From positions 18,042,001-18,106,000 of the forward strand of contig JBHGNT010000017.1 of the NCBI GenBank assembly GCA_043228905.1: a stretch of DNA of 64,000 nt, in the 5' to 3' direction. Positions 915 to 60,913 of the stretch are shown piece by piece. Made by a program: the position numbers and the translations under genes. Numbering within the stretch: the first letter of the stretch is position 1; the number at the start of each line of letters is the position of its first letter. The stretch is from Azolla caroliniana. Its lineage: Eukaryota > Plantae > Polypodiophyta. The notes under the pieces are model-generated. The model saw nothing but the letters and a program-made list of their open reading frames with translations. It did not search any database and was not told where the DNA came from.

Positions 915-3900
915 AGCCCAGTCAGCATCGGTGTAGCCGACTAACTGCGCGGCTGCACCGGTCCGATATAGCAGTCCCCGGTCCTTAGTGCCGTTGACAT
1001 ACCGAAGTATGCGTTGCGCACACTGAAGGTGTTCCTCGGTAGGTTGCGCCATGAACTGACTGATCACTCCGACCGGATAACTGAGGTCGGGTCGGGTGAT
1101 GGTCAAGTATATGAGGCTTCCGACAATTTGTCGGAACCTCATCGGGTCGCATACCGTTCCCGTATCGGGACGAAGCTTGACGGTTCTGTCCAGAGGAGTC
1201 GAGACTGACTTACAGTCAGCCATCCCGAATTTGAAGAGCATACTCAGCACGTAGTGACGTTGGCTAATCAATATGCCTTCGGGGGTACGGATCACTTCGA
1301 TCCCGAGGAAGTAATGAAGGTCCCCCAGATCCTTCATGTCGAATGATGCTGCAAGCTGGAGCTTCACGCGGTCGATTTCACGTAGGTCGGCGCCAATGAT
1401 GACCAAGTCATCAACATATAGTAAAATACTGACTGGTCCGAGTCGACCTTTCCGGATGAACAGGGAAGAGTCCGATTTTGACGTGACGAAGCCCATCCGA
1501 CGCAGTTGTTGCGTGATCTTCACGTTCCAGACACGCGGGGCTTGCTTCAGTCCGTAAAGGGACTTCTTCAGTCGGCATACTGCCGAGGAGTTCGTTCCAG
1601 AGTGAAATCCGGGAGGCTGTACCATGTACACCTGTTCCTCAAGGTCACCTTGCAGGAACGCATTCTTTACATCCATCTGATGTAAGTGCCACCCCTTCAC
1701 CGCAGCTACTGCGAGCAAAACACGGATGGTCGTCATTTTCGCGACCGGCGTAAACGTCTCTTCGTAGTCGATGCCGTGTTTCTGCGCGTAGCCCTTTGCC
1801 ACTAGCCGAGCCTTGTACCGGTTGACCGAGCCATCGGTGTTGTACTTGACCTTGTACACCCACCTACACCTGATCGGTTTTACTCCTCTTGGTGCGTCAA
1901 CCAGGTCCCAGGTCTCGTTCTCCGCCAATGCGTGCAACTCTTCCTCCATCGCGGCACGCCAATTCGCGTCTTTAGCCGCTTCTGCGTAGCTCTCCGGCTC
2001 ACGCACTTCCGCTACACGGGTCATGTACGCATAATGATGCGCCATGTACTCGTTGTATCCGAACCACAAAACAAGATTCTTCTGGCGGGTAGATCGGCGT
2101 AATCTCACATTAGCCGATGTCGAGGCCTTCTCGGTTGACGCGGTCTTCACCTTTAAAGACCCGTCATCGGTTCCCTCGGAGTCGGACTCGCATCGGTCTG
2201 ACTCGTTCCTATCCGTGCCGGAATCCGATACCTTCTTCTTCCCTTTCTCTTTGCGTGTAAGCCGTCTCCTCGGCTTCCTGCGCGGGGAATGCACGACCGA
2301 GTCTCCACTACTCGCCGACTCTTCATCGGACTGGTCGTACCGACTCAATTGTCCAATCGGTCCACTTAAACGGAGTGAAATCGGACTCTCTTCGCGGGTC
2401 TCGATTTCGGGCTCATCCGGAGGCATCTCGGCCTCGCCGACCTCATCGTCAGAGCTCGGATTGGAGTTGGGGTTCGGAGTCGGGGGCTGGTACTAGGACG
2501 CGGACTCGTCAAACACAACGTCGCGGCTAACACACGCTTGTTGTGCGAGGGTTATAGCACTTATAACCCTTCTACTCGTCCGAGTAACCGACCAAGATGC
2601 ATTTCTCGGCCTTTGCGTCCAGCTTCCTCCTTTTCTCCTTCGGTACATGCACATACGCAATGCTACCGAACACCCTCAAGTGTCGCAAGTTCGGCTTCGT
2701 TCCGAAATACAGCTCGTGCGCCGACACTTTGTCTCCGATCCAGTTCTGGATGTATACCGCGGTCCTTACCGCCTCAGCCCAGTAGAACTTGGGCAAACTC
2801 TTCTCCTCCAACATTGCCCGTGCCGCTTCCACAACTGACCGATTCTTCCTCTCGGCCACGCCGTTCTGCTCTGGCGTGTATCTACAACTGAATTCGCGCC
2901 GAATTCCCATTTGTTGTAGATAACCGTTGAATTGACCAGAAAAGTACTCTTTTCCGCCATCCGACCGCAGGCACTTGATCTTCCGTCCCGTTTCCGTTTC
3001 CACGAACCCTTTGAGGTCCCGGAAATAGTCGAAGACTTCACTCTTCCTCTCAATGAGGTAGATCCACGTGTGCTGCGTGTGGTCGTCGATGAATGAGATG
3101 AAATATCGGCTCCCGCCAAGACTAACGTTTTGTGCCAGCCCCCATACATCGGAGTGTATAAGGTCGAGCTTATTCCGGCTCCGGTTTAGCTCGTTGGGGA
3201 AAGGAAGTCGGTGTTGCTTCCCGAGCTGGCAGGCTTCACAAATTTGTGCCTTTCGGCCACTAAATTTGGGCAATCCGAACACTACCTGTTTCGATTGGAG
3301 ATCTTGAAGCCGCTGGTAGTTGACGTGGCCTATCCGCTTGTGCCACAAGTCGATGTCCGACTCGGTTTTCTTCCCTTCGCGAACATTGCGGTGCCGCCGT
3401 CAGTGGAGTCGAGGATGAACATCCTCCCATCTCTGTGCCCTTGCGCAATCACACGGCCTTCTTCCTCAATGAAGCACCCGAGGTGTGTAAACCGAACCTC
3501 CATCCCTTGGTCGACGATCTGTCCGACCGAGACCAAGCTCTTCGTGATTGTCGGAACGTGCAGCACGTTCATGAGTTTCCCTTTCTGCCCGACATGGCTA
3601 AGGGGAACTTCTCCGACATTCGCGATCGGATGCGGAGTGTCGTCTCTAGTTGCGACTACTCCAGGTTGTATCGGTTTTTCAAGGTACGAGAACCACTCCT
3701 TATGGCTCGTCATGTGGTTTGACGCGCCGGAGTCTACGTACCACACCTCGTCCAATCTCGGGGTGATCCGTTTCATTGACTTTGCTTTGTGTCTCGTCAC
3801 GAAGGCAGACCCTTCTCTGGCTCTCTCGGAGTCTTCGGCGTAGTGTGATCGCTGCCGATTTCCCTTGTCGGTATGTCCAGAGCCGTTTCCGGAACTGGTT

Positions 3901-24693: not shown

Positions 24694-27600
24694 TCATGCC
24701 CGTAACATACTCCCCCTCTTTAAAACATTGCACTCTTGCAATGGAAAGTTAGGGAAGTTAGTTCTTAGAGTCGTTTCGCGTTCCCATGTGGCATCCTTGA
24801 TTGATTTATCCATCCATTTTATTTTAAATTCTCGGATTTCCCTAGCACGTAATTTTTTTGTTTTAACATCGAGAATTCTTTCTGGTACATGTGGTTTAGA
24901 AGATAAATCTTCAGAAGTAACCAGAGTTTTAGTTGTGACTGTATTGTCGCCAGAACCTAGAAGTTCTTTTAGACGACTTACATGAAAGACTGGATGGATT
25001 CCAACACCATCGGGAAGAGCGAGACGATAGGCTGATGATCCAATGCGTTTGAGGACTGTAAAAGGTCCACAAAACCGTGGGGCTAACTTAGCGCACTTAC
25101 CCGTAGACAATGTCTTAGAATTGTGAGGTACACGTAAAAATACCTTCTGTCCAGGGCTGAATACACGAGGTTGCCTGTGATGATCGGCATAAAAACGCGC
25201 TCTATCTTGAGCTGTTTTTATATTATCCCGTGCAATATGCAACATATCTTGCATATCCCGAAGAAAGTTTTGCGTACTTCGCAACTCATCATGATGTATA
25301 TTAACATCAATCGGGGCTCGTGGCTGAAATCCATACATCAACATAAAAGGACTATATCCCGTCGACGTATGCTTGGAGCTGTTATAAGCAAACTCCAAAA
25401 TTGGGAGGTAACGTTCCCATTTTGTTGGTTTTGCACCAACGTATGCTCGAAGCATGTCCTCAATAATTTGATTTACTCGTTCTGTCTGTCCATCGGATTG
25501 AGGATGATCCGTGGAGCTCATGCTCAACGTAGTTTCTAACTTCTTAAAGACTTGCGTCCAGAAGTCACTAGTAAACTTCGGATCTCGGTCACTCACGATA
25601 TCCATCGGTAACCCGTAAAAACGAAATAAGTCATCAACGAATTGGTAAGCCAATTCAGGAGCTGTTACCGTGGCAATAAATCTGGCCATTTTAGTTAGTC
25701 TGTCAACCACAACCCATATGGCATCATGACCTTTTTGGGTGCGAGGAAGGCTAACAATAAAATCCATGGATATACTTTCCCACTTATTATTGGGAATGTC
25801 CAAGGGATGTAAAAGTCCTTCGGCTTTAAGTCGCTCGGCTTTGTTAACCTGACATTGGTGACATTTAGTCACATAGCTATGTATGTCAGGACGCATCTTA
25901 GGCCAATAAAATTGAGTGGAGATGAGAACGAGTGTACGATGTATTCCAGGGTGCCCTGCTGAGGGTGCATCATGGCATTCAAAAAGAATTCTCTTTTTGA
26001 CCTCAGGTAAATCTGGAACACAAACCTTCCCATTACGGTAGAGCAGACCGTTAGCAATGTGGAAGTATTCCTTCGAGGGTGTGGTGGTGTCTGTTCCAGA
26101 CTCGACTCTTGCCCAGTATTTTGCAAAATAATTGTCATCAGGATACTTTCCTCGAAGGTGATCATAAAGATCTGATGTTATTTCAGTGAAGCTAAGCATG
26201 TTAACTTCACGGATGCGACTTAGTGCATCAGCGACAGTATTCATGGAACCTTTACGATATCGTATGGAAAAATCAAAGTCCTGGATGAGATCAGCCCATC
26301 GTGCCTTACGACCTTTCAGGTCTTGTTGGTCACAAAAATATTTCAAGGACTCGTGGTCCGTAGTTACCACAAAGCGATTTCCATAAAGATAATGGCGCCA
26401 TGTTTTGAGCGCATGTATAACCGCAAATAATTCCTTTTCTTGAACGGTATACCGACATTGAGCAGAATCAAGTTTCTTACTCTCGAATGCTATTGGTTTA
26501 CCATCTTGATACAAGACAGCACCTATAGCATAATCGCTTGCGTCGGTTTCAACCTCAAAAGGTTTTGAAGGATCGGGTAAAAGAAGTGAAGGAGCCTTGC
26601 ATACCAAGTCCTTGAGTTCCTTAAAGGCGAGGTCTAGTGTAGCATTCCACACAATAGGTTTTGTAGACTTACGCGTTTGACCTTTTAGAAGATCAGTAAA
26701 CGGCGTCGTCAATTGTGAGTAATTACGAAGAGATTTTCGCAAAAATCCGACAAAACCAAGGAATGATCGAACTTCTCGAATATTCCGAAGAGTGGGCCAA
26801 AGCTTGATTTTCTCGATGCGAGAAGGATCAATTTCAACTCCTCGTTCGGTTATGAGATGTCCAAGATAAGTAATTGATTTCTTGAAGAACTCACATTTTG
26901 AGATCTTCGCGTAAAATTGTTTGTCACGCAATATTTGTAAAACAAAGCGGACATGTCTAGCATGTTCTTGTAATGTACGGCTATAAACTAAAATATCATC
27001 TAAGAAGATAACGACAAATTTTCCAAGTTGTTCTCGGAAAATGTCATTCATTTCTTGTTGAAATGTAGCCGGAGCATTGGTCAAACCAAAAGGCATAACC
27101 AAAAACTCATAATGGCCGTAGCGCGTACGAAATGCTGTTTTAGGAACATCGTCCTCACTTATTCGTATTTGATGGTAGCCAGTACGGAGATCAAGTTTCG
27201 TAAAATACCGAGCTCCCTGGAGACGGTCAATTAGATCGTCAGCCCGGGGCAATGGGTACGAATTCTTGATTGTCACTTTATTCAAGCGTCGGTAATTAAT
27301 ACACATACGCCATGTGCCCTCTTTCTTTTTAACCAAGAGAACTGGTGCACCCCATGGAGATTTACTATAACGTATATAACCCATTCGTAAATAGTCTTTA
27401 AGTTGCTTAGCTACCTCATCCTCTTCAGATCGACTTAGGCGATACGGAGGTATACTAATGGGTGCAATGCCAGGTACAATATCTATACGATGGTCTATAT
27501 TACGTTTAGGAGGTAAACCATCGGGTACTTCACTCGGAAAAACATCACGAAAATCGTTTACGATTTCATCAAGTTGTTTTTGTTCAAAATATGTTAATTG

Positions 27601-29118
27601 ACCCGAGACATTATCGATATTGTAAACGTGAATGTCCGGATCAAGTACACAATAAAATAACGTAGAACAAGACAACTCGGATATTGATGGACACGAGGAA
27701 ACAATCGAGAGGGATTGTTTTTTTACACATTGAATAAAATGCGTACAATCGTTGAGTACAAAAGAAATGGAATGGCGAACCCAATCAATAAATAAAGAAG
27801 AGCTTTTATTATAAAACCAGGGATAACCCAGTATTACATCGGTGGTACTAAGATTCATTACATGGAAGTCTACTTCCTCTATATAGGTATCAATAGAAAT
27901 TCCTAAAGAATGAATCGCCCCGTTGATGTGTTGTACTCTTCCATCAGCCAAGTGCACCGTGTAGGTGTGATCACTTACGGTGGGTTGGATTCCCCATATC
28001 TGTACCAAACGATCATTCACAAAATTGTGTGAGCTTCCCGAATCAAATAAAAATTGTACGGGAGATCCATTGATATACCCGTTTGCACGTAGTAAATCAT
28101 TGGGACCCAATACATAATGAGGGAAAGAACATTGACAATTACTCAAATGATGTGTATAGACCTGAAGGACATTAGGAATCTGACCTTTATGGTCTGTAGC
28201 TTTAGGTTTGGCGTCGTGCTCTTTTCGTTGGAGCTTACGACATTGCTCTTTTGTATGACCCTTCTTTTTGCAAAATACGCAAAAAGGATGTTGTCGCTTA
28301 TTATCGCGATCCATGAATTCGTTGGGTGTCTTGCGTTTCCCAACGAATTGCGACTGCTTAGTCCCGGGCGCTTCGTTGGGTTTGTTATGGTCCTTCTTCG
28401 AAGTGCGTTGATAGCGAAGAACTATCTCAACGGCCTCTTCGAAGGATTTTGGATCCTTATCGTGCACTATCCAGTGATAGTCCGAATTGGGGATGCCATT
28501 GACAAAACAAGCTATTAACCAATTGTCCCCTTCTAGACCCGATTTTTGGATTTGGGTTCTAGCATGGTGGACATAGTCTTCTAGCGAGGAAAACTTCCTG
28601 CTAGAGAGGTTCATTAAAGCTTGTGCTGCCTCGGTTCGAGAGGGAGGTTGTAGAAATTGACCCTTGAAAACTGTGACAAAGTCTGTCCAGGTCTCGGGCA
28701 ATCTCCCCAAAGTTCGGAGGCCACGCCACCAGGCGGCGGCCTTACCCCCTAGTTCTCGGCCGACATATGCAATCTTCGTACTATCTGGCGTGGGATAGAG
28801 CTCAAAATGAGACTCCCATCGGCCCAGCCACGTGCAGATTGCTTCTTCGGTTCTTTCCTTTTTATCTCCCATAAATGGCTTTACGACAAATGATGGTTCA
28901 CCCTGACGCTCATCAGGTCTATTAATCTCATTTTGGAGACTAATGACTCGTGCCTCGAGAGCACTTTGAGATTGCCGAAATTCGGTCAACTGCTGCGCGG
29001 TTGAACTAAGGAAATGTTGTACTTGTAAAATATACGCCTCAATGGACATTGTCCCAGGAGGATTTCCTTGAGGTCTTTCCGCTTGAGCAGAGGGCATCGG
29101 GTCGTTATTCTGAGCCAT
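24694..29118 (-). CDS. Intact single-ORF Gag-Pol polyprotein (Gag, PR, RT, RH, INT, chromodomain); likely start ATG 29118, ORF open to 29208
   Basis: [14 protein letters not shown]; LFDSGS; [14 protein letters not shown]; [10 protein letters not shown]; ISMDFI/SDRD/TERVN; PERILDVK...FKIKW...ATWE. Confidence 0.95.
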
Positions 29119-30315
29119 TGAATGATTATTTCTGGCAAAGAAATAAGATAAGGTCAGACAAATAGTCATAACATCTTGTCGTGGTGTAAACATATCATGG
29201 GCAAACATTAATCGATATCATGATCTCACGTCAATACCCCTTTAGACGTATGAGATGAGGTTCAAGATCAGGTTACTATGGTAACACAGAGGTGTTTTAA
29301 AAACCATGGGGGTGACAAATGAATGCCTTTCCCTGATCTCTATATCGATTTTTTTCATGGCGGCTCCCCGAGGCTCAACCATGTATGTTCGCGTCATGAA
29401 TAGTTTATACACGAAAAAAATGTTAACAATAACTATGTTTCTGTGCCCACATATGTGGTTTCGGCTCTTTAAGTCCTATTACGAGGACCCCGAAGTGCAC
29501 TTAGACCTAAAGTCTAAACATGTATTATAGTCATATGTATCAACGATGTTGTATGGTGTTGGTCATATTTGAACTCGAGACCTCGAGGACAAATACATTA
29601 AACACTTGAGCCAACCAAGTATATTGCGCGTCTTGAATGTTTAATGTTTGAGGCGTATTCGAGATATGCGAGGCATTTGCCCCTATATGTTTTTGTTTAA
29701 AAGAAACATATAGGTCAAGTGGCCTTATTTCTCCCTCATTTATTACCCACTATGGTTGTACGCTACCTAACCTCAAGCCTCGTAATTACGATGGCATATG
29801 CCAAAGTGTAACCTAATGGTCAAGCCGAATGAGCCCTTGTGTCTTCGTAGGCTCATGTGGCCCATCACATGGTCACGTCATTACGAATGCCACTCGTAAG
29901 AACGAGCTCATGGTGGCATCGTATCCATGTAACGAGGGGAGATGTTGGATACGTGTGTCATTAGAGCGACCCTACTTGATGTGGATCAAGCCCGACGTAT
30001 TCAACATCATTTTGGCTATACGAGGTTCGTTACGTAACGAAATATCAAAGTGACCAACGGGAATTTCAACAATAAAAATTGTTGATAAAAGGGATGGTGA
30101 CAACGCCATTCTCACAAAAATGTGAGGACGGCCACCAAAATCCTCTCCCCAAGTAGGAAAACATTTGATATGAATCACGTAATCTAAAATATACACATAT
30201 GTCAATATATCACATATATACGATCAGAGACGTATATAAGTGACCACATATGCGTATACTAAATGAATCGTTTTTTTTTTATATAGCCAACAATGATGTA
30301 TTCGGGATACGTAAT

Positions 30316-36171: not shown

Positions 36172-39100
36172 GCAGAACGAGAAATCTATATTCAAAAATC
36201 TTGTAAAATTCTCTATACATACAACGTGCTCATTAGCATTATTTATACAAGTCCTCGGAGGACTGACAGAAGTACAGCGTACTTCAATGCTCACACGAGC
36301 ATTTGACACTAACTACGAGACTATTAATGCCTAGTAGTCTAGGCTACTAGTAGGCTTCCAGTTACTACTGCCCCCAGCTCACCGGCTCATTAGCTCATCG
36401 GGTTCTCACCAGCTCACCGATCTATCTCGCTCACGGGGCTCAGGCTTATTCAGCCGATCCGGCTCCAGTTGAGCTTGCCACTCAACACTCCCCCTCAAGC
36501 TCAACTTGAGGTTGGTTTGTAGTGTCAGTGTCCGTGGTAGACAATCCTTCCACCCGGCTCGCGCTCCTCGTCCGGTCCAGTCTCTTCTGCCACAACCCCT
36601 CTGGTTCTTCGCACCTCGACCTCCTTGGTCGGCATGTCTGCTCAACAAGCCCAATTCAACTCCCTCGCTATTGTGACTTTGGCGCTTGTCGACCCGTCGA
36701 TTCCTTCGTGTTGGCGTCGACTTTCGTTGCCTTCTCGTCCGCTTGGCCTTTCAGATTTGTCTGAATCGGCACGCTTTTTCCAGCACTCGCTTTCTCTGTG
36801 GCCCTTTTTGCCACAATACCAGCATTCTGTGTCGGCCTTTGCTTGCCGGCCTCCGGCGCCGCCTTGACTCTCCCTGCTTGTAGAGGGTCCGGAACTACTG
36901 TCGGCACGATCTTTGTGCCGTCTTTCCTGCTCTTGTCAACTGCCTCCATTGCTGCCGACCCACCTCGTCTTCCATGCCCACGAGGCCTATCCGCCTCCGT
37001 GTAAAGCATTCGGTTGTCTGTGGGTGCACTTGTTGATGCACCGGCGTGGTTCTCCTCTACAAGGAGGATCAACTGTAAGTCGAAAAACGACGACGTATTC
37101 TCTCTTGTGCATACTGCTATCCGGAAAACTCGGAACTTAGACACCAAGCCCCCAAGACATACCTGTACCATCTCATTTTCCTCTACAGTGACGTTGATAG
37201 AGGCAAGTGAGTCAAAGATCTCTTTGATCCAGACCGTGTAAGTGTAATCAGCCACCGACATGTCCTTTTGTCGGACATTGCTTAATTCTTGTTGGAGTTG
37301 TAGCTTCCGGGCTATAATGCTTGCGGCGAAGACCTTCTTTAGTTTTCCCCAATCTTCCTTTGGCGTCTTGGCATCTCGGATGTGGCTCAACAGCTAGTCT
37401 CCGACACTGGACGCAAAACAGTACATCACCCTGCTTGCCGCTTGTTCCCACTCTAGGAAGTCCTTGTGTGTCGCATCAGGTGTTGTGTTGTAAAAGAAAT
37501 AGCGTGCAGAAGCAATATAAAACCGAACACAGAAACGCAGGTTTAATGGAGAGCTTAGAATATACATAGTATGCGGGAGAGACAGAGAGAGAGAGCACAC
37601 AGAAAATCAATTCAAAAAGAATACTCAATGTGTGCATCGTATGTGTTCAGTGAACACTTTTATACAAGTCCATACAGACTGATAGAAGTACGGTATACTT
37701 CAACGCTCACATGAGTGTCTGACACTAACTTCGACACATTAACTACCTAGCAGCCTAGGCTGTTACTAAACTTCCAGTTATTGCAGGTTCCGGCTAACCG
37801 GCTCCCTAGCTCACTGGCTCACCAATACGGCTCATCCTTCCGGATGCCGATCCGGATCCAGTTGAGCTTTCCGCTGAACACTCCCCCTCAAGCTCAACTT
37901 GAGGTTGGATCGTAGTGTCAATCTCCATGGCAGTCGGTCCTTCCACCCGGCTCCTTCTAGCGTCACTCCGCCTCACTCGCGCTCCTCGTCCAGCCGGTCC
38001 TGTTTGCCGCGACCCTTTTGTTTTTGCGCACCTCAACCTCCTCGGTCGGGTTGTTTGCTCAACAAGCCCAAATCAGCTCCCTCGTTGTTGTGACTTCGGC
38101 GCTTGTCGATTCACCGATTCCTTCTTGTTGGCGTCGACTTTTGTTGCCTTCTCATCCTCTTGGCCTTGAATTGATCCGGTTCTTCTGAATCTGTCTGTTG
38201 AACCGAATCAACTGTCTCTTATTCGTTCCAGCTCTTGTTCGAATCGGTCGCTCCCAATTTGTCTTCCGGTTCCAGGCCCTTCATTACATCAGACCATGTC
38301 CGGGTCTTGGCCTTCTTCTTCCGGTTGACTCTATCCTTGTTGACTCTGTCGCCGCTACCACTTGTTCCGACTTGTTTGGATGTCAACTCGGCTCCTTTCT
38401 TCTTCTTGTCTCCCCCTTTGTCGGTTCTTCCCTCACCAGCGCAACCGGCAATTTCTTTGCCTTTGCCTGTTCCGGTGTCTTTGCTCGTGCCCGTTCTCCC
38501 CCTCAAGTGTGGCACGTCGAGATGCTGAACACCAAGCATTTCGGTGAAGTGTTACAACTTGTCCGATCCGAGCGGTTTGGTGAAGATGTCGGCAACTTGC
38601 TGATCCGTATGAACATACCGAAGTTCGACTTCACCGCTCAGGACAAGCTCATGCACAAAGTGGTAGTGCACTTCTATGTGCTTTGTGTGAGCATGGAATA
38701 CGGGGTTCTTGGCGAGCTGCATGCTGCTCATGTTGTCACAGTAGATCAGGATCGGAGTCGGCACCTTGATCCACAGGTCTTGCAGCAGTCGCCGAAGCCA
38801 AATGGCTTCACAGGTGGCAATGGTAACGCCCCGGTAGTCAGCCTCAGTGCTCGAGAGGGCCACTATTGGCTGCTTTTTGCTGCTCCACGCAACAGCCGTG
38901 CTACCAAGGGAAAACATATAGCCGGAGGTGGATCGGCGATCCGATGCATCGCCGGCCTGGTCGGCATCGGTGTAGCCGACTAGCTCTTCGGTTATACCAT
39001 GCCAGTTTAACAGTCCTCGTTCCTTCGTGCCGCTCCCATAGCGCAAAATTCGATGCGCGCACAGAAGGTGCTCCACGGTCGTCTTCTATATATATTGGTT

Positions 39101-42100
39101 GATCACGCCAACCGGATAACTGATGTCGAGTTGGGTGATTGTCGAATATATAAGGCTTCCAACGATTTGTCGGAACCGTTTCTCATGGCAGGCCGGTCTA
39201 TAGTCGGGACGGACCTTCTCGTTCCGGTCCAGGGGTGTAGAGATCGGGCGGCATTCCGTCATGCCGAACTTGTACAGCATATTCAACACATAGTGTCGTT
39301 GTGAGAGCAATATGCCGTCGAGGGTTCAGATCACCTCGATCCCAAGGAAACAGTGAAGTTCCCCCACGTCCTTCATCTCAAATGCGTCCGACAGTTGGGA
39401 CTTGACTCGGTTGATTTCATCGAGTCCAGGTCCGGTGATGACTAGATCATCAACATACAACAGGATGCAAACTGAACCGTCCGGACCTTGCCGGATGAAC
39501 AACGAAGAGTCAGACTTAGAGGCCGCAAACCCCATCTTACGCAACCGATGCGTGATCGTGGCATTCCAAGCTCGGGGGGCTTGCTTCAGGCCATAAAATG
39601 ACTTCTTCAACCGGCATACCGCCGACTTGTTCATCGCTGACTGGAAACCGGGGGGTTGGGTCATAAGGACCTCTTCTTCAAGATCGCCTTGAAGAAATGC
39701 ATTCTTCACATCCATCTGGTGAAGATACCACCCCCGTGCCGCAGCAACCGCCAACAGCACATGAACTGTCGTCATCTTCGCTACCGGAGCGAAGGTCTCG
39801 TCGTAGTCGATTCCGTGGGTCTGCGCGTATCCCTTCGCCACTAACCGGCCCTTGTACCGGTTAACCGAACCGTCGGCATTGTACTTTACCTTGTACACCC
39901 ACTTACGTCCGATCGATTTACAGTGTCAGGGAGGGTTAACTAGGTCCCATGTGTCGTTGGCATCAAGTGCCCGCATTTCTTCCTCCATAGCAGCACACCA
40001 ATTTTCATCCCTTGCCGCTTCTGCGTAGCTCTTCGGCTCACGCACTTCCGCCACCTTGGTCATGTACGCATATCGATGCGCCATGTTCTCATTGTACCCA
40101 TACCGCCTCACGGGGTTCTTCTGGCGGGAAGACCGGCGTAACTTATCGTTACCCGGTTTGAGGTCCTTCTTGGCCGGTTCAAACTTCACTCTCAAAGATC
40201 CACCTTCATCCTTTCCGTAGTCGGATTCGCTCCGATCCGACTCAATTCTTTGCGCGTGAACCGTCTCCTCGGTTCCTTGCGCAGGGAGAGCACGGCAGAG
40301 TCTCCATTACTCGTCGGTTCTTCATTGGACTGGTCATCCCGACTCACCCGCTCATTCGGTCCACTTAACCAAAATGAGGTTGGACTCTCTTCTAGAGTGC
40401 CAAGGTTTCATCTTCTAACTGGACCGATTCAGGCTCACTAGCCTCATCCTCCGGTATCGGCTCGGGGTCGGAAGTCGGAGCCGGTAAGGCATACCATGAT
40501 GCCGTCTCATCAAACTCAACATCCCGGCTAACTCAGACCTGCTTCGTCCGGGGGTTATAACATTTATACCCCTTTTGCTCATGCGAGTAACCGACCAGGA
40601 TGCATTTCTCTGACTTTGCATCCAACTTCCTCCGCTTCTCATCCGGCACATGCACATATGCAATGCTACCGAATATCCGAAGGTGTCTCAAATTCGGCTT
40701 GCGCCCGAAATATAGCTCATGCACGGACACCTTGTCACCAATCCGGTTTTGGATGTAGACGACCGTCCGGACTGCCTCCGCCAAGTAGAAATGGGGCATG
40801 CTCTTCTCCTCTAGCATTGCCCTTGCCACGTCAACAATCGACCGGTTCTTCCTTTCGGCCACACCATTTTGCTCCGGTGTGTATCTATAGTAGAACTCTC
40901 TCTAAATTCCTTTCTACTGCAGATAACTGTTGAATTGGCTGGAAAAATATTCTTTTCCGCCATCCAACCGCAGGCACTTGATATTCCTCTCCGTTTCCCG
41001 TTCAACCCGGCTTTGCAGGTTCCGGAAACACTCGAAGACTTCGCTCTTCCGCTCAATGAGGTAGATCCATATGTGCCAGATGTAGTCATCGATGAAGAAG
41101 ATGAAATACCGACTCCCGCCAAGACTAACGTTCTGTGCCGGTTCTCATACATCCGAATGAATAAGGTTGAGCTTGTTACGGCTACGGTTTCGTTCAGTGG
41201 GGAATAGAAGCCGGTGTTGCTTCCCGAGTTGGTAGACTTCACATATTTGGGCCTTCCGGCCACTGAACTTCGGCAAACCGAAAACAACTTGTTTCGTTTG
41301 TAGGACTTGAAGCCACCGGTAATTGATGTGGCCAATCCACTTGTGCCAAAGATCAATATCCGATTCAATCTTCTGTCCTTTGGCGATCAAAGCGGTGTCA
41401 ACGTCATTAGTGTCGAGGATGAACATCCTCCCATCTTTGCGCCCTTGCACAATGATTTGGCCCTCTTCCTCGATGAAGCACCCAAGGTGCGTAAACCGCA
41501 CCTGTATCCCCTAGTTAACGATCTAACTAACTGACACCAGGTTCTTCGTGATAGTCGGAATGTGTAATACGTTCATCAGCTTCCCCCTCTGTCCAACATG
41601 GATCAAAGGGACTTCTCCGACATGCACGATTGGGTGTGGAGTGTCATCTCCGGTTTCGACAACTCCTGGTTGTTCCGGTTTCTCCAAGAAAGAGAACCAC
41701 TCTTTGTGGTTCGTCATGTGATTCGACGCATTGGAATCAACATACCACACTTCCTCTGATTTGGAAGTGGTCTGCTTCATCGAGTTAGCCTCGTGTTTTA
41801 TCACCAAGGTTGGCCCTTTACTGGCTTTTCCGGTTTTGGATCCTCCCGATCCTTCTGCGTAGTGCAAGTATTGTTGGTTCTCTCTGTCGGCCTTGCTGGA
41901 TCCGGATCTGTCCAAATCGGCGCGCTTCTTCCAACACTCGCTTTCTCTGTGGCCCTTTTTACCACAATACCAACATTTTGTGTCGGCCTTTGCTTGCCAG
42001 CCTCCGGCGCCGCCTTGACTCCCCCTGCTTGTGGAGGGTCTGGAACTACTATCGGCACGTTCTTTGTGCCTTTGGTCCTGCACTTGCCGGCTGCTACCAT

Positions 42101-42494
42101 TGCGAGCCGACCCGCCTCATCCACCACGCCCACGGGGCCGATCCGCTTCCGTGTACAGCATCCAGCTATTGGTGGGTGCACTTGTTGATGCACCGGCGTG
42201 GTTCTCCTCTACAAGGAGCATTGACTATAAGTCGAAAAATGACGGTGTATTCTCCCTTGTACACACAGTAATTCGGAATGCTCCGAACTTTGACGCCAAT
42301 CCCCCAAGACAGATCTGCACCATCTCGCTTTCCTCGACATTCACATCAATGGAGGCTAAGGAGTAGCATATATCTTACTAGGACCAAATGGTCAAAACAA
42401 GGAGTGCGTAGAGATAGGCACAAGACGATTAGAGGGTGCTTAAGCTAAACAAGAGAAAGTAGGCAACATACACTAATGAGAGAGAGAGAGAGAG

Positions 42495-42570
42495 AGAGAG
42501 ATGTTTTTAATTCAAAGAGGGAGAGATGTTTTTAATTCAAAGAGGGAGAGATGTTTTTAATTCAAAGAGG
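42495..42570. repeat. Three tandem 25-bp units followed by (CT)n in the PLE 3' region
   Basis: GAGAGATGTTTTTAATTCAAAGAGG x3; reads ATTAAA on the element strand. Confidence 0.85.
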
Positions 42571-42574
42571 GTGG

Positions 42575-42629
42575 TGGTCTTAGGCAAACTAGTTTCGCTC
42601 AATAGTGGAGCTCTTCAGTGCAAAGACCA
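42575..42629 (-). ncRNA. Type I minimal hammerhead ribozyme
   Basis: Minus strand UGGUCUU-U-GCA CUGAAGA GCUC-CACUAUU-GAGC GAAA C-UA-G UU UGC-CU-AAGACCA: full core, stem I, stem II and palindromic mini stem III (AACUAGUU). Confidence 0.85.
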
Positions 42630-42871
42630 TTACAACAAGAGAATGTGATTTATAAAGGGGTGGGAAGGAAGAGGGAGTGAGAGAAAAAGGAGTGGGGAGG
42701 ATTTGATTTGTGTAGTAGATGAGAGAGAATAGAATGTGGTGATGAGAGAGAGAGAGAGAGAGAGAAATGTGTGTAGGAAAGTGATAGGGAATGAGAGAAG
42801 GGAAATTAGTATAATGATGATGGTGAGGGGGGAGTTTTTAATGTGATGAAAAAGGGGGATTTGGGATAATA

Positions 42872-43073
42872 TTAAGTGGGGGATGTGGGTGAATTATTTG
42901 AAAACTTAGTGTTAAGTGGGGGATTTGGGTGGATTGTTTGAAACTTTAGTCTTAAGTGGGGGATTTGGGTGGATTGTTTGAAAATTTAGTCTTAAGTGGG
43001 GGATTTTGGTGGATTGTTTGAAAACTTAGTTTTAAGTGGGGGATTTTGGTGGATTTTTTGAAAACTTGGTCTT
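42872..43073. repeat. Five tandem 40-bp units overlapping the PLE stop codon
   Basis: AAGTGGGGGATTTGGGTGGATTGTTTGAAAACTTAGTCTT-like unit x5. Confidence 0.9.
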
Positions 43074-44747
43074 AACTAGGAGGGCATTTAAGGACTTAGA
43101 TTTTGTCCAACATACGAAAGGGCGTGAGATGCTTGTAAGCTCGGGATCTAACATTAAGTCATTATAGAGATTTTTTAGAAAACTATGAATGCCTAGTTTT
43201 GGGGTATGTTTGGTGTATCTAAGTTTAAAGATTGTGGGGTTAAGGGAAGTAATAGTTTTGGGTTGATATAGGAGTGTTTTTCTAAGACTAAAAGGTATTT
43301 TCTTATAGCATTTTAGTATAAAGGATGGAGGGTAACCACGGTTAACTAGTCTATTGAAAAAGAGTTTTTTCATTTGGTAGAAACCTAATGGGGTGCTTTC
43401 TCTAATAAGATATCTCTTCACTTCATTAGTGATAAAGTGTTGTTTCGTATGGGAAGGATGATCCGATGAAAAAGGCAAGTATTGGTATGAATTGAGAGGT
43501 TTTTGAAAACAATTGAATAAGAAAGATGAATTTTTGAGGTTGATCCATATGTCTAAAAAAGGTAGCCGAAAGGGGGAAGTTTGAATGGTAAGCTTGATGG
43601 AGTTATTTGTGTGTGAAGGGTAAAAGTCGAGATATTCTAAAAGTTGAGATTTGGTGCCTGTCCAGACCCCAAATGCATCATCAATATAGCGGGTGAAGTA
43701 GAAGAGATGGGGGGGCGATGGTTGTAAGTTTTCGAGATATACTAAAAAGAGGCATGCATATACGACTGAAAAGTTGCTACCCATGGCCGTACCTTTTATT
43801 TGTTGGTAAACTACGTCATCGAAAGTGAGATAGTGATATTCTAAAATAAGGGCACTAAGGGTATAGATGAGATTTGTTTTCGAAGGGGAAAAGTGGGGGG
43901 TGATTAGACTACGTAGGGCTTGGAGTCCTAACTTAGGGGGGATACTAGGATAGAGAGATTCAACGTCAAACGTGAATAAGAAACTATTAGATGGTGGGTG
44001 TAGGTTTTCTAGTGATTGGATTAGTGTGTGAGAGTCTTTTAGATATTGTGGTTGGAGAAGGAGGATTGGTAAAAGTTGGTGGTGTAACCACTTCGATGTT
44101 TGTTCAAATAAGGAGTTATTATATGAACAAATGGGCCGGAAACCCATAGGTGTTTTGTGTAATTTAGGGAGGAAATAGAGGTTGGATACTTGATATCCTT
44201 TTTTGGGTTTGTGGAGGATGAAATTAGCTTCAATTGGGGAAAGTGTACCTAAGTGGTTTGTTATTATGTTATTAAGGCGGTATAGTAACTCTTCCAAGGG
44301 GAAGTGGCTGACTCTCTTATAGGTGGTAGAATTCGAGAGGTGTTCTATGGCTTTGGTGTAGTATGTGTCTTTATCTAGAACACATACTCCCATATTTTTA
44401 TCGGCTGGGAGGATGATAATGTGTTTGTTGTGTTGGAGGCTTTTAAAGGCTCTAGAGAGGTGGTATGGGATTCTAGTGTTTATGGGTTTAGTGTTGTGTG
44501 CTATTTGGTTAAGGATGTGTTGGTGTTTTTCTATTATGGAGACTAGGGGTGGATATTCTGTGGGTGGCATCCAACTAGGGTTAGGTAGTTTGAAGGGGTT
44601 GAGAGGAAGTGAAGGTGTATTTCTAAAAAAATGTTTTAGCTTGAGGGATCTCGAGAGGTGGGTGAATTCTTTTAGGATATTGTTGGGTGAGGGAGGTGGG
44701 GATGGTAGGATATACTTAAGGCCTAGGTTTAGCAATTGTGTTTCATT
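43032..44747 (-). CDS. Penelope-type reverse transcriptase plus thumb, uninterrupted (~570 aa), no C-terminal GIY-YIG; start missing
   Basis: LLNLGLKY, ILPADKNMG, YFLPKLHK, RPICS, TFDVESLYPSI, QIKGTAMGS, YFTRYIDD, LPFLDI, YLPFSSDHP, NRGYP. Confidence 0.9.
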   Translation of the reverse strand, partial: NETQLLNLGLKYILPSPPPSPNNILKEFTHLSRSLKLKHFFRNTPSLPLNPFKLPNPSWMPPTEYPPLVSIIEKHQHILNQIAHNTKPINTRIPYHLSRAFKSLQHNKHIIILPADKNMGVCVLDKDTYYTKAIEHLSNSTTYKRVSHFPLEELLYRLNNIITNHLGTLSPIEANFILHKPKKGYQVSNLYFLPKLHKTPMGFRPICSYNNSLFEQTSKWLHHQLLPILLLQPQYLKDSHTLIQSLENLHPPSNSFLFTFDVESLYPSIPPKLGLQALRSLITPHFSPSKTNLIYTLSALILEYHYLTFDDVVYQQIKGTAMGSNFSVVYACLFLVYLENLQPSPPHLFYFTRYIDDAFGVWTGTKSQLLEYLDFYPSHTNNSIKLTIQTSPFRLPFLDIWINLKNSSFLFNCFQKPLNSYQYLPFSSDHPSHTKQHFITNEVKRYLIRESTPLGFYQMKKLFFNRLVNRGYPPSFILKCYKKIPFSLRKTLLYQPKTITSLNPTIFKLRYTKHTPKLGIHSFLKNLYNDLMLDPELTSISRPFVCWTKSKSLNALLVKTKFSKNPPKSPT

Positions 44748-46821
44748 TTGCTGGATCCGGATCTGTCCAAATCGGCGCGCTTCTTCCAGCACTCGCTTTC
44801 TCTGTGGCCCTTTTTACCACAATACCAACATTTTGTGTCGGCCTTTGCTTGCCAGCCTCCGGCGCCGCCTTGACTCCCCCTGCTTGTGGAGGGTCTGGAA
44901 CTACTATCGGCACATTCTTTGTGCCTTTGGTCCTGCACTTGCCGGCTGCTACCATTGCGAGCCGACCCGCCTCATCCACCACGCCCACGGGGCCGATCCG
45001 CTTCCGTGTACAGCATCCAGCTATTGGTGGGTGCACTTGTTGATGCACCGGCGTGGTTCTCCTCTACAAGGAGCATTGACTATAAGTCGAAAAATGACGG
45101 TGTATTCTCCCTTGTACACACAGTAATTCGGAATGCTCCGAACTTTGACGCCAATCCCCCAAGACAGATCTGCACCATCTCGCTTTCCTCGACATTCACA
45201 TCAATGGAGGCTAAGGAGTAGCATATATCTTTGATCTTCAAGGTGTAATCAGTCACTGACAAATCGCGTTGTCGTAGGTTGCTCAACTCCTGTCGGAGTT
45301 GAAGCTTCCTGGTTGTAGTTCTTGCGGCGAAAATCTTCTTCAGATTTCCCCAAGCATCTTTCGGCATTTTTGCATCCCGAATGTAGCTTAGGAGTTGTTT
45401 GCCCAGACAAGACGCGAAGCAATACAATACTCTACTCGTCGATTTTTCCCACATAGGGAAATCTCTGTGTGTCGATTCGGGTGCTATGTCATTTGCTCCA
45501 TTGACATAGCTCCAGTAACCGTGCCTGAGCAGGTACTGGTGCATCTTGTAGGACCAAGATGCGTAGTTGTTTCTGTCAAGCTTCTCCGTTGGAAGCGAGC
45601 TAGCCATGCCTCTATCCATCGGTTTTTACCTGTTCTTCTTGGTTGGTTTTCTTTTCAAGTTATGTCGGCTGCAGAGGTTCTCAACCCTCACGCTCTGATA
45701 CCATGTAAAAGGAATAGCGTGCGGAAGCAATAGAAAACCGAACACAGAAACACAAGTTTAATGGAGAGCTTAGAATATACATAGTACGCGGGAGACAGAG
45801 AGAGAGAGAGCACATAGAAAATCAATTCAAAAATAATACTCAATCTATGCATCGTATGTGTTCAGTGAACACTTTTATACAAGTCCATACGGACTGACAG
45901 AAGTACGGTATACTTCAACGCTCACACGAGCGTCTGACACTAACTTCGAGACATTAACTACCTAGCAACCTAGGTTGTTACTAAGCTTCCAGTTACTGCT
46001 GGTTCCGGCTAACCGGCTCCCCATCTCACCGGCTCTCTTGCTCACCGGCTCACCGATCTGGCTCATCCTTTCGGATGTCGATTCGGATCCGGTTGAGCTT
46101 GCCACTCAACATGTGTCGTTAGCTCCGTCGACATAGCTCCAGTAACCATGCCCAAGCAAGTACTAGTGCATCTTGTATGACCAAGATGTGTAGTTGGATC
46201 TGTCGAGCTTCTCCATTGGGAATGAGCTAGCCATTCCTCTATCCATATCTTTTTGTGTCTGTTCTTACCGGGTGTTAGGGTTTGTCTTTAGAAGCTATGT
46301 CAGCCTCAAAGGTTCTCAACACTCGCGCTCTGATACCATGTTAAGACTAACGTGTGGAAGCGTTTAGACAAACAGGTTTACCGGCAAAAACAGAAAACAG
46401 AAAAATAAGGAGTTAAACGCAAGAGATACGCTTACGCGGGAGAGACAAAGAGAGAGAGACTGTGTGTGAGCAAAACAAGACATCTATATTCAAAACTCTT
46501 GTAAAATTCTCTACAACGTGCTCATCAGTACTATTTATACAAGTCCTCAGAGGACTGACAGAAGTACAACGTACTTCAATGCTCACACAAGCATCTGACA
46601 CTAACTACGAGACTATTAATGCCCACTAGTCTAGGCTACTACTAGGCTTCCGGTTACTACTGGACCCAGCTAACCGGCTCCCCAGTTCACCAGTTCGTTA
46701 GCTCACTAGGTTCTCCCCGGCTCACCGATCTATCTCGCTCACCGGCTCAGGCTTATTCAGCCGATCCAGCTCCAGTTGAACTTGCCGCTCAACACTTTAC
46801 CTTTTTATTGATGTACCCAAA

Positions 46822-54637: not shown

Positions 54638-54736
54638 ATGTGTTCATTAGCTTCTCCAATGACACCCTTTGCCACAACTCTAGGACTGCTTACGCATACA
54701 CCTAGGTTAGTGTGTGTATGCTCGAGATTAAAACAA

Positions 54737-55049
54737 GGGAAAAGTACCAAGATACCCCTGGAAGTTTGTCTATTTACCAGAATGCCCCTGGAAGTTCCAA
54801 ATTTACCAAACTACCCCTATGTCCAAAAAAATACACTTTATAAAGTAAGTACAAAGGACCCAAAGAATCTCTTAAGTAAATAAATGTGTGTTTTAAGGGT
54901 ATTCTGGTAAATAGGGATTGTAGATTTTAGTGTATAATTACTTTATAAAGTGTATTTTTTTGGACATAGGAGTAGTTTGGTAAATTTGGAACTTCCAGGG
55001 GCATTCTAGTAAATAGACGAACTTCCAGGGGCATCCTGGTACTTTTCCC
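54737..55049. mobile_element. Mutator-like MITE (313 bp)
   Basis: ~110-bp TIRs GGGAAAAGTACCA.../...TGGTACTTTTCCC; 9-bp TSD TTAAAACAA. Confidence 0.9.
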
Positions 55050-55569
55050 TTAAAACAAACTATGTATAGATGCCTAGCCTTTGTATATTATATGTGAGAG
55101 TTTATCTCTCTCGAAGGCTTTTTAGCACACATAAACATTAGGTTGCACATAACTAGTGCTTTGTGACTTTAAAACTTTTGGGTTCAAGTCTCAAGATAAT
55201 TCTAGTTTGAGAACTAAAACTTTCTCTTCCAACAATAACTTCACAACCTTGGTTACATGTACATATATAATTATCTAAAAAGCCTAGGGCTGAAAGCAAT
55301 GTCTCCTAGCATGAATATGGAATGATAAAATCGAGACAAAACCTTGGGGCATGTGGGTTTGGGCATTATTGGGTTCGTGTGCAATCAAGAGTTTCAAAAT
55401 TGGATAAAAGTAAAATGCAACTATTGAGTGTGAGTTTGGTTGGGCATGTAAATGTTAAATTGATTAATCGGTATAATAACAAATTTTGCAAAAAACAACC
55501 TGATCGGCAACACTAGAGTAACTCGAGACCATGTACATAAAGCTAAGGTTTAAACAAAATGAAATTAAT

Positions 55570-58131: not shown

Positions 58132-60913
58132 ATGGGGTTGCCCATAACTACTTCTTCATCATCATCACCACCATCACCACCACCACCATCATCATCATGG
58201 CCTCTCACTGTGGTTGCAGGTTTTGGCATGAGAAGCCTCCTGTTTCTGCTGCTTTCCATGGCCTCCATCACTCTCTTGCTCCTCCTCTCCACTGATTTCC
58301 TCACCTTTTCCTCTTCACAACTCCTCACCATCTCCACACCATCTTCAGGTAAGTTCCTTCTTTCCAAACTTTATATTTGTCTTTTCTTTATTCAATTAGT
58401 TCCTTCTTTCCAGACTTTCCTTATATTTTTCTTTTCTTTATTCAATTAGGTTAGTATAGTTTTTGTGGTCTATGAAGTGCTTTGTTTCTCCAGCTTTGTG
58501 ATCTATTTGCTCTTCAAATGCTTGGCTTTATGATCTATTCTTCCTCCTATTGTATTGCTTATGTTGATTTTCATAATGTCCATACATTCTGTTGCTATTC
58601 TGGTTGTTAGCCAGTTCAAGATCAAGTGCCAGTTTAACAACTTAATTTCTATGAGCATTCTATGACCTTCAGGAATCAATAAAGCTATAGAATATACTAC
58701 TAGCCCATCACTTCGGCAACTGTCACCCACAACTCTTTACTTATGCCTCATTTAACCAAAAGATCGGTATCGTTACATAGCTCTTTATTAGGGTAGAATC
58801 AAGATAGTGCATCATGTTGGAAGCAATAGATTCTAAGCTAGTAAAGAGTGCATTGCAAATGTGAGGTTGATTGTCTTAAACAAGCATTCATGGGTTATTG
58901 GTTCACTTTCTTTATCACTTTTTAGTATGATTGGGGAGACTGTATCCTATCTCTAATGATGTAAGGGAAACACAATGAGAAGTAACTATCCTTATCTCCA
59001 TATTGGATTGCTAGTATGATTTCTCTGCTTATTATTCCAAGGAATAGGATTGATCTTTTTAAAGTTGTTTTTGATCCAAAACACATGTTTCATGCCACTC
59101 CACCCATACAGACAAATTCTTATTTTTGTTGAATTCTAGGGTCTTATCCAGGAATCTTGATCCATAACCAGGAACAAGAATCATTATATAATCGTGAAAC
59201 AGACTCCATCATCAACAGTTCAAATGTGGGGACATGGAATAACCATGGAAGCCCAAGATCTGCAATCGAGAAGCACAAGGAATATTCAAAGCTCATCAAA
59301 CCAGATCTCGTAACATTAAAGCATGGAATCCCAAGCTCAGAAATCAATATGTGGAAGGAATCTTCAAGCAAGATGAATGATGAAGGTGTTATCGATACGA
59401 ATCACGAAGAAAAGGGCCTTAGGGAAAGGATTATTCAACATGACATGACAGATACATATCGAGGGGGTCATAGCTCGGCCCCAAAGGCGAGAAGTGTGTG
59501 CCATTGTGCCTTAAAAAAACATTATAACGTCACAATTTCTTAATTAAAGGATTCTAACTATTCCCGTTCGGGTCTATATAACTCTTTTATCCCAGGCTGC
59601 AATTACTACACGGGGAAGTGGGTGAAAGGTGTGAACAAGCCCCTGTATTCGGGGAAATCGTGCAAGAGATGGTTATCTGGGATGTGGGCATGTCGAGAGA
59701 TGAATGGCCGGCCAAGCTTTGACTATGAAAGCTACAAATGGCAACCGGATGGTTGTAATTTGCCTGTCTTCCGGAGCCGTGATTTCTTGTCGAGGTTGGA
59801 TTTCTCGAAACTCTCATCAAGCAAGGGAACCATGATGGAATCTCATGAATAGAAATTAAGTCTGGTCCATTGGGCATGGTCATTGCATACTTTTCTGTTG
59901 TTGGGTATTTACCAAAATACCTGTTGGTTTTATTGAATGGCCAGAATACCGATAAGGAGTCGCATTTTCTAGTCATTTGTGTAGGGGGTATTATTTTGGT
60001 GTTTTCCTCTTGGGGTATTTTGGAAGTGACAAAATGTTTTGTGTTGTGTAGGATGCGAAACAAGGTTTTGGTGTTTGTCGGGGATTCGATAGGAAGGCAG
60101 CAATTCCAATCGTTAATGTGCATGCTCACGGGCGGGAAGGATGATGCTTTAGTGGACGATGTGGGCAAATACTATGGTCTTGTGAGGAGAAGAGGCGAGA
60201 TACGAGCCGAAGGGACGGCACAAAGGTTCCTAGAAAGCAACACGACGATAGTTTATTATTGGTCGGCCACTTTGTGTGAACTCCAAGCTCTTAACGCAAC
60301 TTGCAAAGATACCGAGTATGCAATGCATCTCGACCGGCCCGCCACATTCATACAGAAGTACCTCAAGGTCATCGATGTCTTGGTATTGAACACGGGGCAT
60401 CATTGGAACCGAGGAAAGATGAATGCGAACAAGTGGGTTATGTATGTAGAAGGTAAGCCTAATACTAATGTAAGGCTCTCCAAGGACTTTGGGTTTGCTC
60501 GGAACTTCACCATACACAAGGTCGCCACATGGCTTCATAATCAACGTGAGCGGAATAAAACAAGAGCGGAAGTTTATATAAGGTCGTTGTCCCCAAGGCA
60601 TTTTTTCAATGGGGATTGGGATTCGGGAGGCCGGTGCGATGTTAGCTTGGTGCCGGTCGAAGCGAAAAACATTAGTGGTCAGAATGTGTTGGACTCTTCT
60701 GTGGAGAGTGCGGTTTTAGGAACAAGGATACATATGCTTAATATCACGTATATATCTCAATTTAGAGATGAAGCACACATTTCCAAGTATAGACCTCAGC
60801 AGAGTGGTCAAGATTGTCTACATTGGTGCCTCCCTGGGGTCCCAGATGTGTGGAATGAGCTTCTCTATGCCGAAATTCTTTCAAAGGAGATTGGAGTTGT
60901 TAAGGATGTTTAG
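58132..60913 (+). CDS. TBL: TRICHOME BIREFRINGENCE-LIKE polysaccharide O-acetyltransferase; exons 58132-58348, 59140-59493, 59596-59794, 60052-60913
   Basis: N-terminal TM anchor; CNYYTGKWV...WAC...YKWQPDGC; GDS motif (FVGDSIGRQQF); DCLHWCLPGVPDVWN; phase-compatible GT-AG introns. Confidence 0.93.

Follow-up and report, generated by a model that had tools for sequence, protein, structure and literature searches.

We consider it quite probable, from the genomic sequences compared, that the terminal repeat of an endonuclease-less fern Penelope-like element (PLE) carries a type I hammerhead that cuts in vivo after GUU, setting the 5′ end of the element RNA, and that most copies of the element come from RNA with an intact downstream hammerhead. 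The element lies on the minus strand of the window, that is, the whole stretch of 64,000 nucleotides of Azolla caroliniana DNA that was analysed, and its features are collected in Table 1.

The motif is a type I hammerhead by its core (CUGANGA...GAAA...NUH around a three-way junction) and by its topology, with helix I open and helices II and III closed, an assignment that rests on these two traits and places it outside every curated Rfam family. All the parts listed in the original prediction were present where they had been placed. Stem I is interrupted by a 1x2 internal loop, stem II closes a loop of 7 nt, and stem III is formed by 2 bp (A-U and C-G) with the loop UA. The distance to the stop of the ORF (43034-43032, same strand), given before as about 400 nt, is 403 nt.

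Table 1. Features of the element and of its insertion site, numbered from the first letter of the window.
Feature	Position	Strand	Basis
Type I hammerhead: core with stem I of 7+3 bp, stem II of 4 bp, and stem III of 2 bp	42575..42629	-	sequence, conservation, covariation
Outer stem I, 7 bp	42629-42623 x 42581-42575	-	
Inner stem I, 3 bp	42621-42619 x 42586-42584	-	
Core, CUGAAGA and GAAA	42618-42612 and 42596-42593	-	
Stem II, 4 bp	42611-42608 / 42600-42597	-	
Triplet GUU	42589-42587	-	
Predicted cleavage site after GUU (42587|42586); matches the point where eight leader-starting copies at other genomic sites have their 5′ boundary	42586..42587	-	boundary mapping
Palindrome AACUAGUU, predicted to form stem III between the molecules of a double hammerhead	42587..42594	-	10/10 representatives palindromic; dimer fold predicted
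TATA-like box 27 nt ahead of outer stem I; the terminal repeat likely has its RNA polymerase II promoter here	42649..42656	-	spacing kept; promoter function inferred
3′ UTR: tandem repeats of ~40 bp and pyrimidine tracts	42657..43031	-	sequence
5′-truncated ORF2 coding for the PLE reverse transcriptase; the frame is open as far as the stop and has no GIY-YIG domain past the thumb	43032..44747	-	homologs, tree
Leader after the cut, 216 nt, with 25-nt repeats and a CT microsatellite; in full units ORF1 follows it	42371..42586	-	sequence, full units
Box (42408-42398) and 4-bp hairpin (42393-42382), both conserved, immediately ahead of the fixed 3′ end	42382..42408	-	conservation; role in reverse transcription start inferred
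6-nt overlap of the element RNA continuation with the start of the duplicated target; likely priming site	42371..42376	-	junction comparison
Target duplication, copy past the element 3′ end, 484 bp, 99.6% identical	41893..42376	.	pairwise comparison
Target duplication, copy past the element 5′ end	44748..45231	.	pairwise comparison
Host Ty1/copia element, gag region interrupted by the PLE	37489..46100	-	LTR-like repeats near 37489-37869 and 45704-46100; primer site 45703-45692

Judged as a single sequence, the motif was unremarkable. The Rfam search that had been suggested as a check returned no family at its gathering score in the window, and the best score for the motif was 15.2 bits (Hammerhead_HH9, E 7.4) against a gathering score of 52 for HH9; its folding z was -1.5, weak alone, and the bare core pattern gave 4 matches where 6.7 were expected. 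The motif stands beyond chance because it is conserved: a tight hammerhead pattern found 162 sites in the whole genome and its reversed control found 0, the motif keeps the same place in families found without the pattern, and stem I has compensatory changes. The pattern matches sort into at least seven families (lettered below) with different loops and flanks, and families B, C, F, and G were recovered independently of the tight pattern, each with the motif at the same place. A DNA search for family copies, in which 40 of 113 candidates were scored, retrieved 30 loci. Among nine subfamily representatives, 54 of the 63 cells of outer stem I were paired and double changes occurred in 4 of the 7 pairs; a strand-swap control, which disregards relatedness, was equally good in 7 of 10,000 cases. 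The main change, from GGUC/GACC to GACC/GGUC, may reflect just one or two events. Covariation was counted on hand-set anchors because MAFFT left outer stem I out of register, and the pairs of the core and inner stem, invariant among representatives partly because the search pattern selected them, were uninformative. The conservation and covariation named, beside cleavage, as tests of the original prediction were in this way both found. At L172, and at L147 near position 1500, the hammerhead core was cleanly deleted between short shared bases.

The GUU triplet and the palindrome were kept in 10/10 representatives; the palindrome of family F is AACAUGUU, and one family swaps the loop UA for AU with the palindrome preserved. 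When folded freely, the monomer was predicted to adopt an inactive register in all 10 representatives, and the dimer of the window motif, with the core held open, was predicted to gain ~5 kcal/mol over two monomers. The idea of a dimer would fit the preserved palindrome. Loops I and II, the site of tertiary contact in hammerheads, both vary among families, and those of family E are presumably the closest to canonical hammerhead loops. Two earlier descriptions had to be corrected. GUU, pointed out as less common than GUC/GUA, is no oddity because it is fixed in all the folded representatives and is also present among the PLE hammerheads in the supplement of PMC4209133; and the motif, described as a minimal type I hammerhead, is not of the minimal metazoan PLE type but nearer to the canonical type of Selaginella in the available text of the same paper.

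The ORF that precedes the motif had 248 homologs, including PLE proteins bearing GIY-YIG, and its nearest named relatives were from Cryptomeria, Selaginella, and Ginkgo. It has the N-terminal motifs and thumb of a PLE-type reverse transcriptase, which bears out its attribution to a PLE. In a quick tree that left out named Coprina, Athena, and TERT sequences, the window reverse transcriptase, the Selaginella protein, and the Cryptomeria and Ginkgo proteins formed one clade at 99%. ORF2 ends ~218 aa after YIDD, against 339-390 in GIY-YIG homologs. Pfam detected no GIY-YIG in the scanned ORFs of full units of families C and E, nothing in the window ORF, and no informative family in ORF1; GIY-YIG is absent at either end, as in endonuclease-minus PLEs. 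Tandem and partial-tandem copies, 5′ truncation, and inverted 5′ pieces, which are habits of PLEs, were all seen. Full units have the order hammerhead, leader, box and hairpin, ORF1, ORF2, and 3′ UTR. ORF1 is a low-complexity frame of ~750-880 aa with 17 relatives, all unnamed, and a search of the ESM Atlas with it gave no match at 0.9 or above. In families A, C, D, and E the heptamer A AAA AAC lies close ahead of the stop of ORF1 and ORF2 occupies the -1 frame, which suggests a putative -1 frameshift at the overlap of both ORFs.

Other classes were considered for this element. PLE-X identity was dropped, given that neither CxC nor IFD nor the CxCX1-8C extension was seen and that the listed PLE-X hammerhead differs; in translations read by eye there was no CxC before the reverse transcriptase and the distance from motif A to B′ was ~57 aa. 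A plant LTR retrozyme, defined in the available text of bioRxiv 2026.07.22.740005 by a type III hammerhead in LTRs and no coding capacity, was ruled out by the type I motif and by the element coding for a reverse transcriptase. The reverse-complement telomeric repeats that Coprina has beside its 3′-end hammerhead are absent in family A; families C and E have telomere-like repeats within their leaders, upstream of the box. The element was filed as an endonuclease-minus PLE of the land-plant reverse transcriptase clade, and not as a telomere-associated Coprina, because it fails the telomere tests. Family B (L148 4108-6600; L153, L154, L155) comprises non-coding hammerhead units of ~1.8-2.2 kb, often in tandem and with a decayed ORF1 start; it likely acts as a non-autonomous partner and would parallel, in plants, the type I retrozymes of animals. 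At L144, about 1010-1610, there are three tandem units of ~176-198 nt with TATA, hammerhead, and part of the leader, in which the GAAA side is changed; they are of retrozyme size and probably inactive.

Taking into account the surroundings of the motif, its polarity could be addressed. A TATA-like box lies 24-28 nt before outer stem I in 9/9 representatives. All 30 family A loci run past the cut and end about 190-260 nt beyond it, just after the conserved box and the 4-bp hairpin, and they diverge within a few bases past this hairpin. The other families likewise continue to the box and hairpin, whose stems vary in matching fashion, and in tandem units the ATG of ORF1 follows ~20-35 nt after the hairpin. 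With TATA upstream, the start of ORF1 downstream, and every one of these copies extending past the cut, the motif therefore belongs to the following unit, as its 5′ part. It is the 5′ end of the element RNA that the cut likely makes, rather than a 3′ end for the template, most copies are likely derived from RNA with an intact downstream hammerhead, and the conserved box with its hairpin is likely the signal for the start of reverse transcription. The location "in the 3′ region of the PLE" holds in that the motif sits 3′ of the ORF here, but functionally it would be a 5′-end device of the following unit. Similarly, the proposal that cleavage processes tandem or read-through RNA agrees with the copies that begin at the cut site, but the RNA that is copied does not owe its 3′ end to this cut. 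Within ORF1 of family A (L063 minus strand, oriented 3618-3645) a sequence nearly identical to the 3′-end hairpin was observed. In another family (L020 810-857, 1241-1288) one telomere-like repeat directly follows the hairpin, a candidate for true telomere priming.

In families A, B, C, and D we looked for junctions by requiring post-cut sequence and, 14 nt upstream, a base other than the canonical one; about a quarter of the junctions escape such a search. The copies that begin 0-2 bases from the cut, coinciding with the position originally proposed, number eight: two in family A, four in D, and two in C, all independent of one another and each with its own flanks. Two of these boundaries are exact, one is short by 1 nt, and five have 1-2 ambiguous T, templated or added; six copies are leader-only, one runs into an internal piece of ORF1, and one is an inverted leader. 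Among the matches listed, those starting at the cut were 2/4 in family A, 3/6 in D, 2/3 in C, and 0/5 in B; a wider family A search had 1 at the cut among the 28 matches listed. No copy among the matches listed for these four families starts in the 11 positions next upstream of the cut. Four apparent near-cut matches turned out on inspection to be internal deletions or point changes and were rejected, and seven further matches were canonical-like, judged from the matched letters alone.

An independent sample of family D was drawn by its last 116 nt. It gave 43 matches, 37 of which were mapped together with 2 other loci; one +113 tandem with its flank was excluded as a later amplification. Three copies begin at the cut (two without the query's own), one at +18, and two events at -35 and -41, while the rest start further upstream or beyond the region. 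From a background of 11 ends in 1,380 nt, 0.03 would be expected in 4 nt, which gives P ~5e-4 for 2. In a family A copy, C14, an inverted leader ends at the cut and is joined to a complete ORF1-ORF2 unit whose downstream hammerhead is intact, the whole later split by a 13-kb LTR-bounded insertion. This structure would fit a linear RNA cut at the first site only; the inverted leader could instead come from a second RNA. Three or four copies start inside the 5′ strand of stem I, near the putative transcription start. Judging by these boundaries, hammerhead cleavage likely takes place in vivo.

The window PLE is truncated 5′, near 44747, and is inserted in the gag region of a copia element. Elsewhere in the window we observed an open Ty3/gypsy chromovirus-type polyprotein frame of 1507 aa (24694-29217) with flanking repeats 99% identical, a young LTR element; an exon of a trichome-birefringence-like (PC-esterase) gene whose best named matches are ferns (59849-60913); and a MITE-like inverted repeat of 117 bp, 95% complementary and 83 nt apart (54735-55051). 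An initial idea of a moss host was dropped, since a gene nearby has its best named matches in ferns.

Considering the 39 regions of family A, 32 were mappable, of which 5 had a clean target duplication (111, 125, 484, 817, and 977 bp), 7 were ambiguous, and 20 were without duplication within the region. The copies starting at the cut had a duplication in 0/5 (10-kb regions), and the long duplication as a rule was rejected on these two counts. Arrays of other families lie within duplications of 3,826, about 3,600, and 33 bp. At six clean duplications, target and RNA overlap just past the hairpin by 6, 6, 5, 2, 2, and 3 nt; at three ambiguous ones the overlaps are 1, 0, and 0 nt. Such junctions suggest priming on free chromosomal 3′ ends by an element with no endonuclease of its own. 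The element is not restricted to chromosome ends: of the first 100 pattern matches listed, 88 are separated from contig ends by at least 1 Mb and 4 fall within 100 kb of one (0.9 expected). For two contigs the length used was a lower bound, and a contig end is not necessarily a telomere. Those 88 interior matches led us to drop telomere attachment as the main route, and rDNA targeting was dropped with no rRNA matches in 8 loci. At one chromosome tip (L156 1-8000) a long CCCTAAA array abuts a family C copy inside ORF1, and this copy faces opposite to what terminal attachment would give, as in a healed break.

One insertion, of 23 kb, consists of 4 seamless units of 5.58 kb plus 284 nt, inside the single 3,826-bp target duplication, and the units differ at 3 sites. 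It is located at L158, L077, L078, and L159 (G000 C22, 8.945-8.968 Mb), within a copia element, and in the unit that was read ORF2 is broken. Further arrays have units of 4.66 and 6.1 kb. Chimeric insertions (L062 2602-3708; L126; L132; L075/L076; L166) join two families head to head or in series, which suggests that both ends of a break served for priming and that template jumping occurred. Copies of different families are found in a 178-bp satellite, possibly centromeric (L062, L064, L151, and the C29 array), and a tandem cluster of six tRNA genes or tRNA-derived repeats lies beside a PLE chimera (L076 6952-9075).

Taken together, a possible course of events can be described. Transcription would start a few bases before stem I, from the TATA box, and the read-through RNA of a tandem locus would carry two hammerheads, which could pair through the palindrome and cut slowly, removing a capped piece of ~45 nt. 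The reverse transcriptase would start 0-15 nt past a hairpin, on a chromosomal 3′ end pairing over 2-6 bases. A start at the downstream hairpin would give long copies through the intact hammerhead, such as the window copy, and a start at the hairpin beside the cut end would give the leader-only copies. The window copy would be a lone, 5′-truncated by-product, and efficient cutting by its hammerhead would call for a partner RNA. The purpose of the cut would most likely be 5′ maturation of the message, perhaps aiding cap-independent translation, an aid reported for viral type I hammerheads in the available part of PMC13725137.

The same boundaries and arrays could be accounted for in other ways. 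Both hammerheads could cut and the unit RNA be ligated to a circle, on which rolling-circle reverse transcription from the hairpin would rebuild the hammerhead and make arrays, as the model proposed in the available text of PMC4209133 has it. The seamless four-unit array inside one duplication, with its few differences, and the arrays with other unit lengths speak in favour of this, and it would account for copies that cross an intact hammerhead despite cutting. We nevertheless hold it to be rather unlikely, since copies ending at the cut require a linear 5′ end and the C14 copy combines such an end with an intact second hammerhead. Moreover, the family D array on C20 has the core changed, U4 to C, in all three hammerheads, and a family B copy begins before stem I and spans two intact hammerheads; arrays could also come from unequal exchange or from smoothing of the assembly. 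Because the C20 cores are all changed, cutting may be dispensable for spread, as was found in vitro with an animal PLE (PMC11167929).

It could also be thought that the 5′ ends pile up by stalling of the reverse transcriptase at the hammerhead fold, or from a second transcription start, with no cutting in vivo. The predicted misfolding of the monomer would agree with this, as would the weak in vitro activity of PLE hammerheads with a short stem III (PMC4209133) and an animal PLE with no reads at the cut (PMC11167929), both as far as the available texts go. Yet a stop caused by structure should fall where stem I has its 3′ foot, ~12 nt past the cut, and the family D control window from +1 to +14 contained one match only, itself beginning at +1. 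The usual spacing from TATA to start is shorter than 66-72 nt, the distance of the box from the cut, which is too far for a usual start. We regard these two variants as improbable, more so than the circular RNA. Least credible of all is a role of the hammerhead as 3′ terminator: it would agree with the position of the motif past the stop of ORF2, but the family A loci, without exception, and the other families extend beyond the cut to the box and hairpin. Linear RNA cut at its 5′ hammerhead is the reading we prefer.

Insertions beginning at the scissile bond would be a DNA record of cutting and would fix the polarity of the hammerhead as a maker of 5′ ends. The eight copies speak to whether PLE hammerheads cut in vivo; in the literature searched no published account of cut-site PLE copies was found, and an earlier mention is possible. 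The hammerhead as such belongs to a known ribozyme class, and it is the setting that is new. The family is a young, multi-copy case of spread without endonuclease, a question left open for PLE-X in the text available from Craig (2021, PMC8557442). More tentatively, and with rather less than even confidence, we propose that this land-plant clade of endonuclease-less PLEs uses free DNA 3′ ends for telomerase-like priming and spreads in this way in the interior of chromosomes, with duplications up to 3.8 kb, and that a deliberately slow, dimer-dependent hammerhead behind a TATA box splits its RNA into uncut templates and decapped messengers; the leader-only insertions would then document, for the first time in a genome, that a PLE hammerhead cuts in vivo.

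By comparison with known systems, drawn from the accessible portions of the papers cited, the nearest is that of Selaginella moellendorffii, where type I hammerheads in endonuclease-deficient plant PLEs were already known (Cervera and De la Pena 2014, PMC4209133). Type I topology, a short palindromic stem III, and the terminal-repeat position are shared, and the Selaginella protein of the 99% clade resembles the 'Selagine1' row of Craig's Fig. S1 (PMC8557442). In contrast, the host here is a fern and the copies are mostly chromosome-interior; cut-site copies, TATA placement, and long duplications were not found in the accessible text of PMC4209133. Coprina and Athena/Terminon also have no GIY-YIG, a hammerhead near the 3′ end, and head-to-tail arrays (PMC8557442, PMC6431247, PMC13159263), and the two overlapping ORFs are as in Athena and in Ascochyta Coprina. 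These elements attach to telomeric overhangs via telomeric repeats beside the hammerhead (same sources), whereas family A has no such repeats and would prime ~200 nt further on. PLE-X of Chara and Selaginella is likewise an endonuclease-less plant PLE with a hammerhead and non-telomeric insertion, but only PLE-X has the CxC motif, IFD, the CxCX1-8C extension, and 28S rDNA or (CA)n targets (Craig et al. 2021, PMC8557442).

In Poseidon PAc of Anolis, reverse transcription starts inside the RNA at a stem-loop downstream of the hammerhead and the template is mainly uncut RNA (Frangieh et al. 2024, PMC11167929), as we propose here. PAc has an endonuclease, primes without homology, and in the accessible text shows no reads at the cut site, while fern copies do start at the cut and their junctions overlap by 2-6 nt. 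The Dualen LINE of Chlamydomonas is also flanked by target duplications of hundreds of bases and has two endonucleases (PMC9977147), where the fern element has none recognisable. Further literature for comparison is PMC12477314 and PMC7229834. Finally, retroelements whose RNA owes its 5′ end, ahead of the ORF, to a self-cleaving motif follow the same logic with a different class of ribozyme; they rely on co-transcription by the host, whereas the fern PLE appears to bring its own TATA-type promoter.
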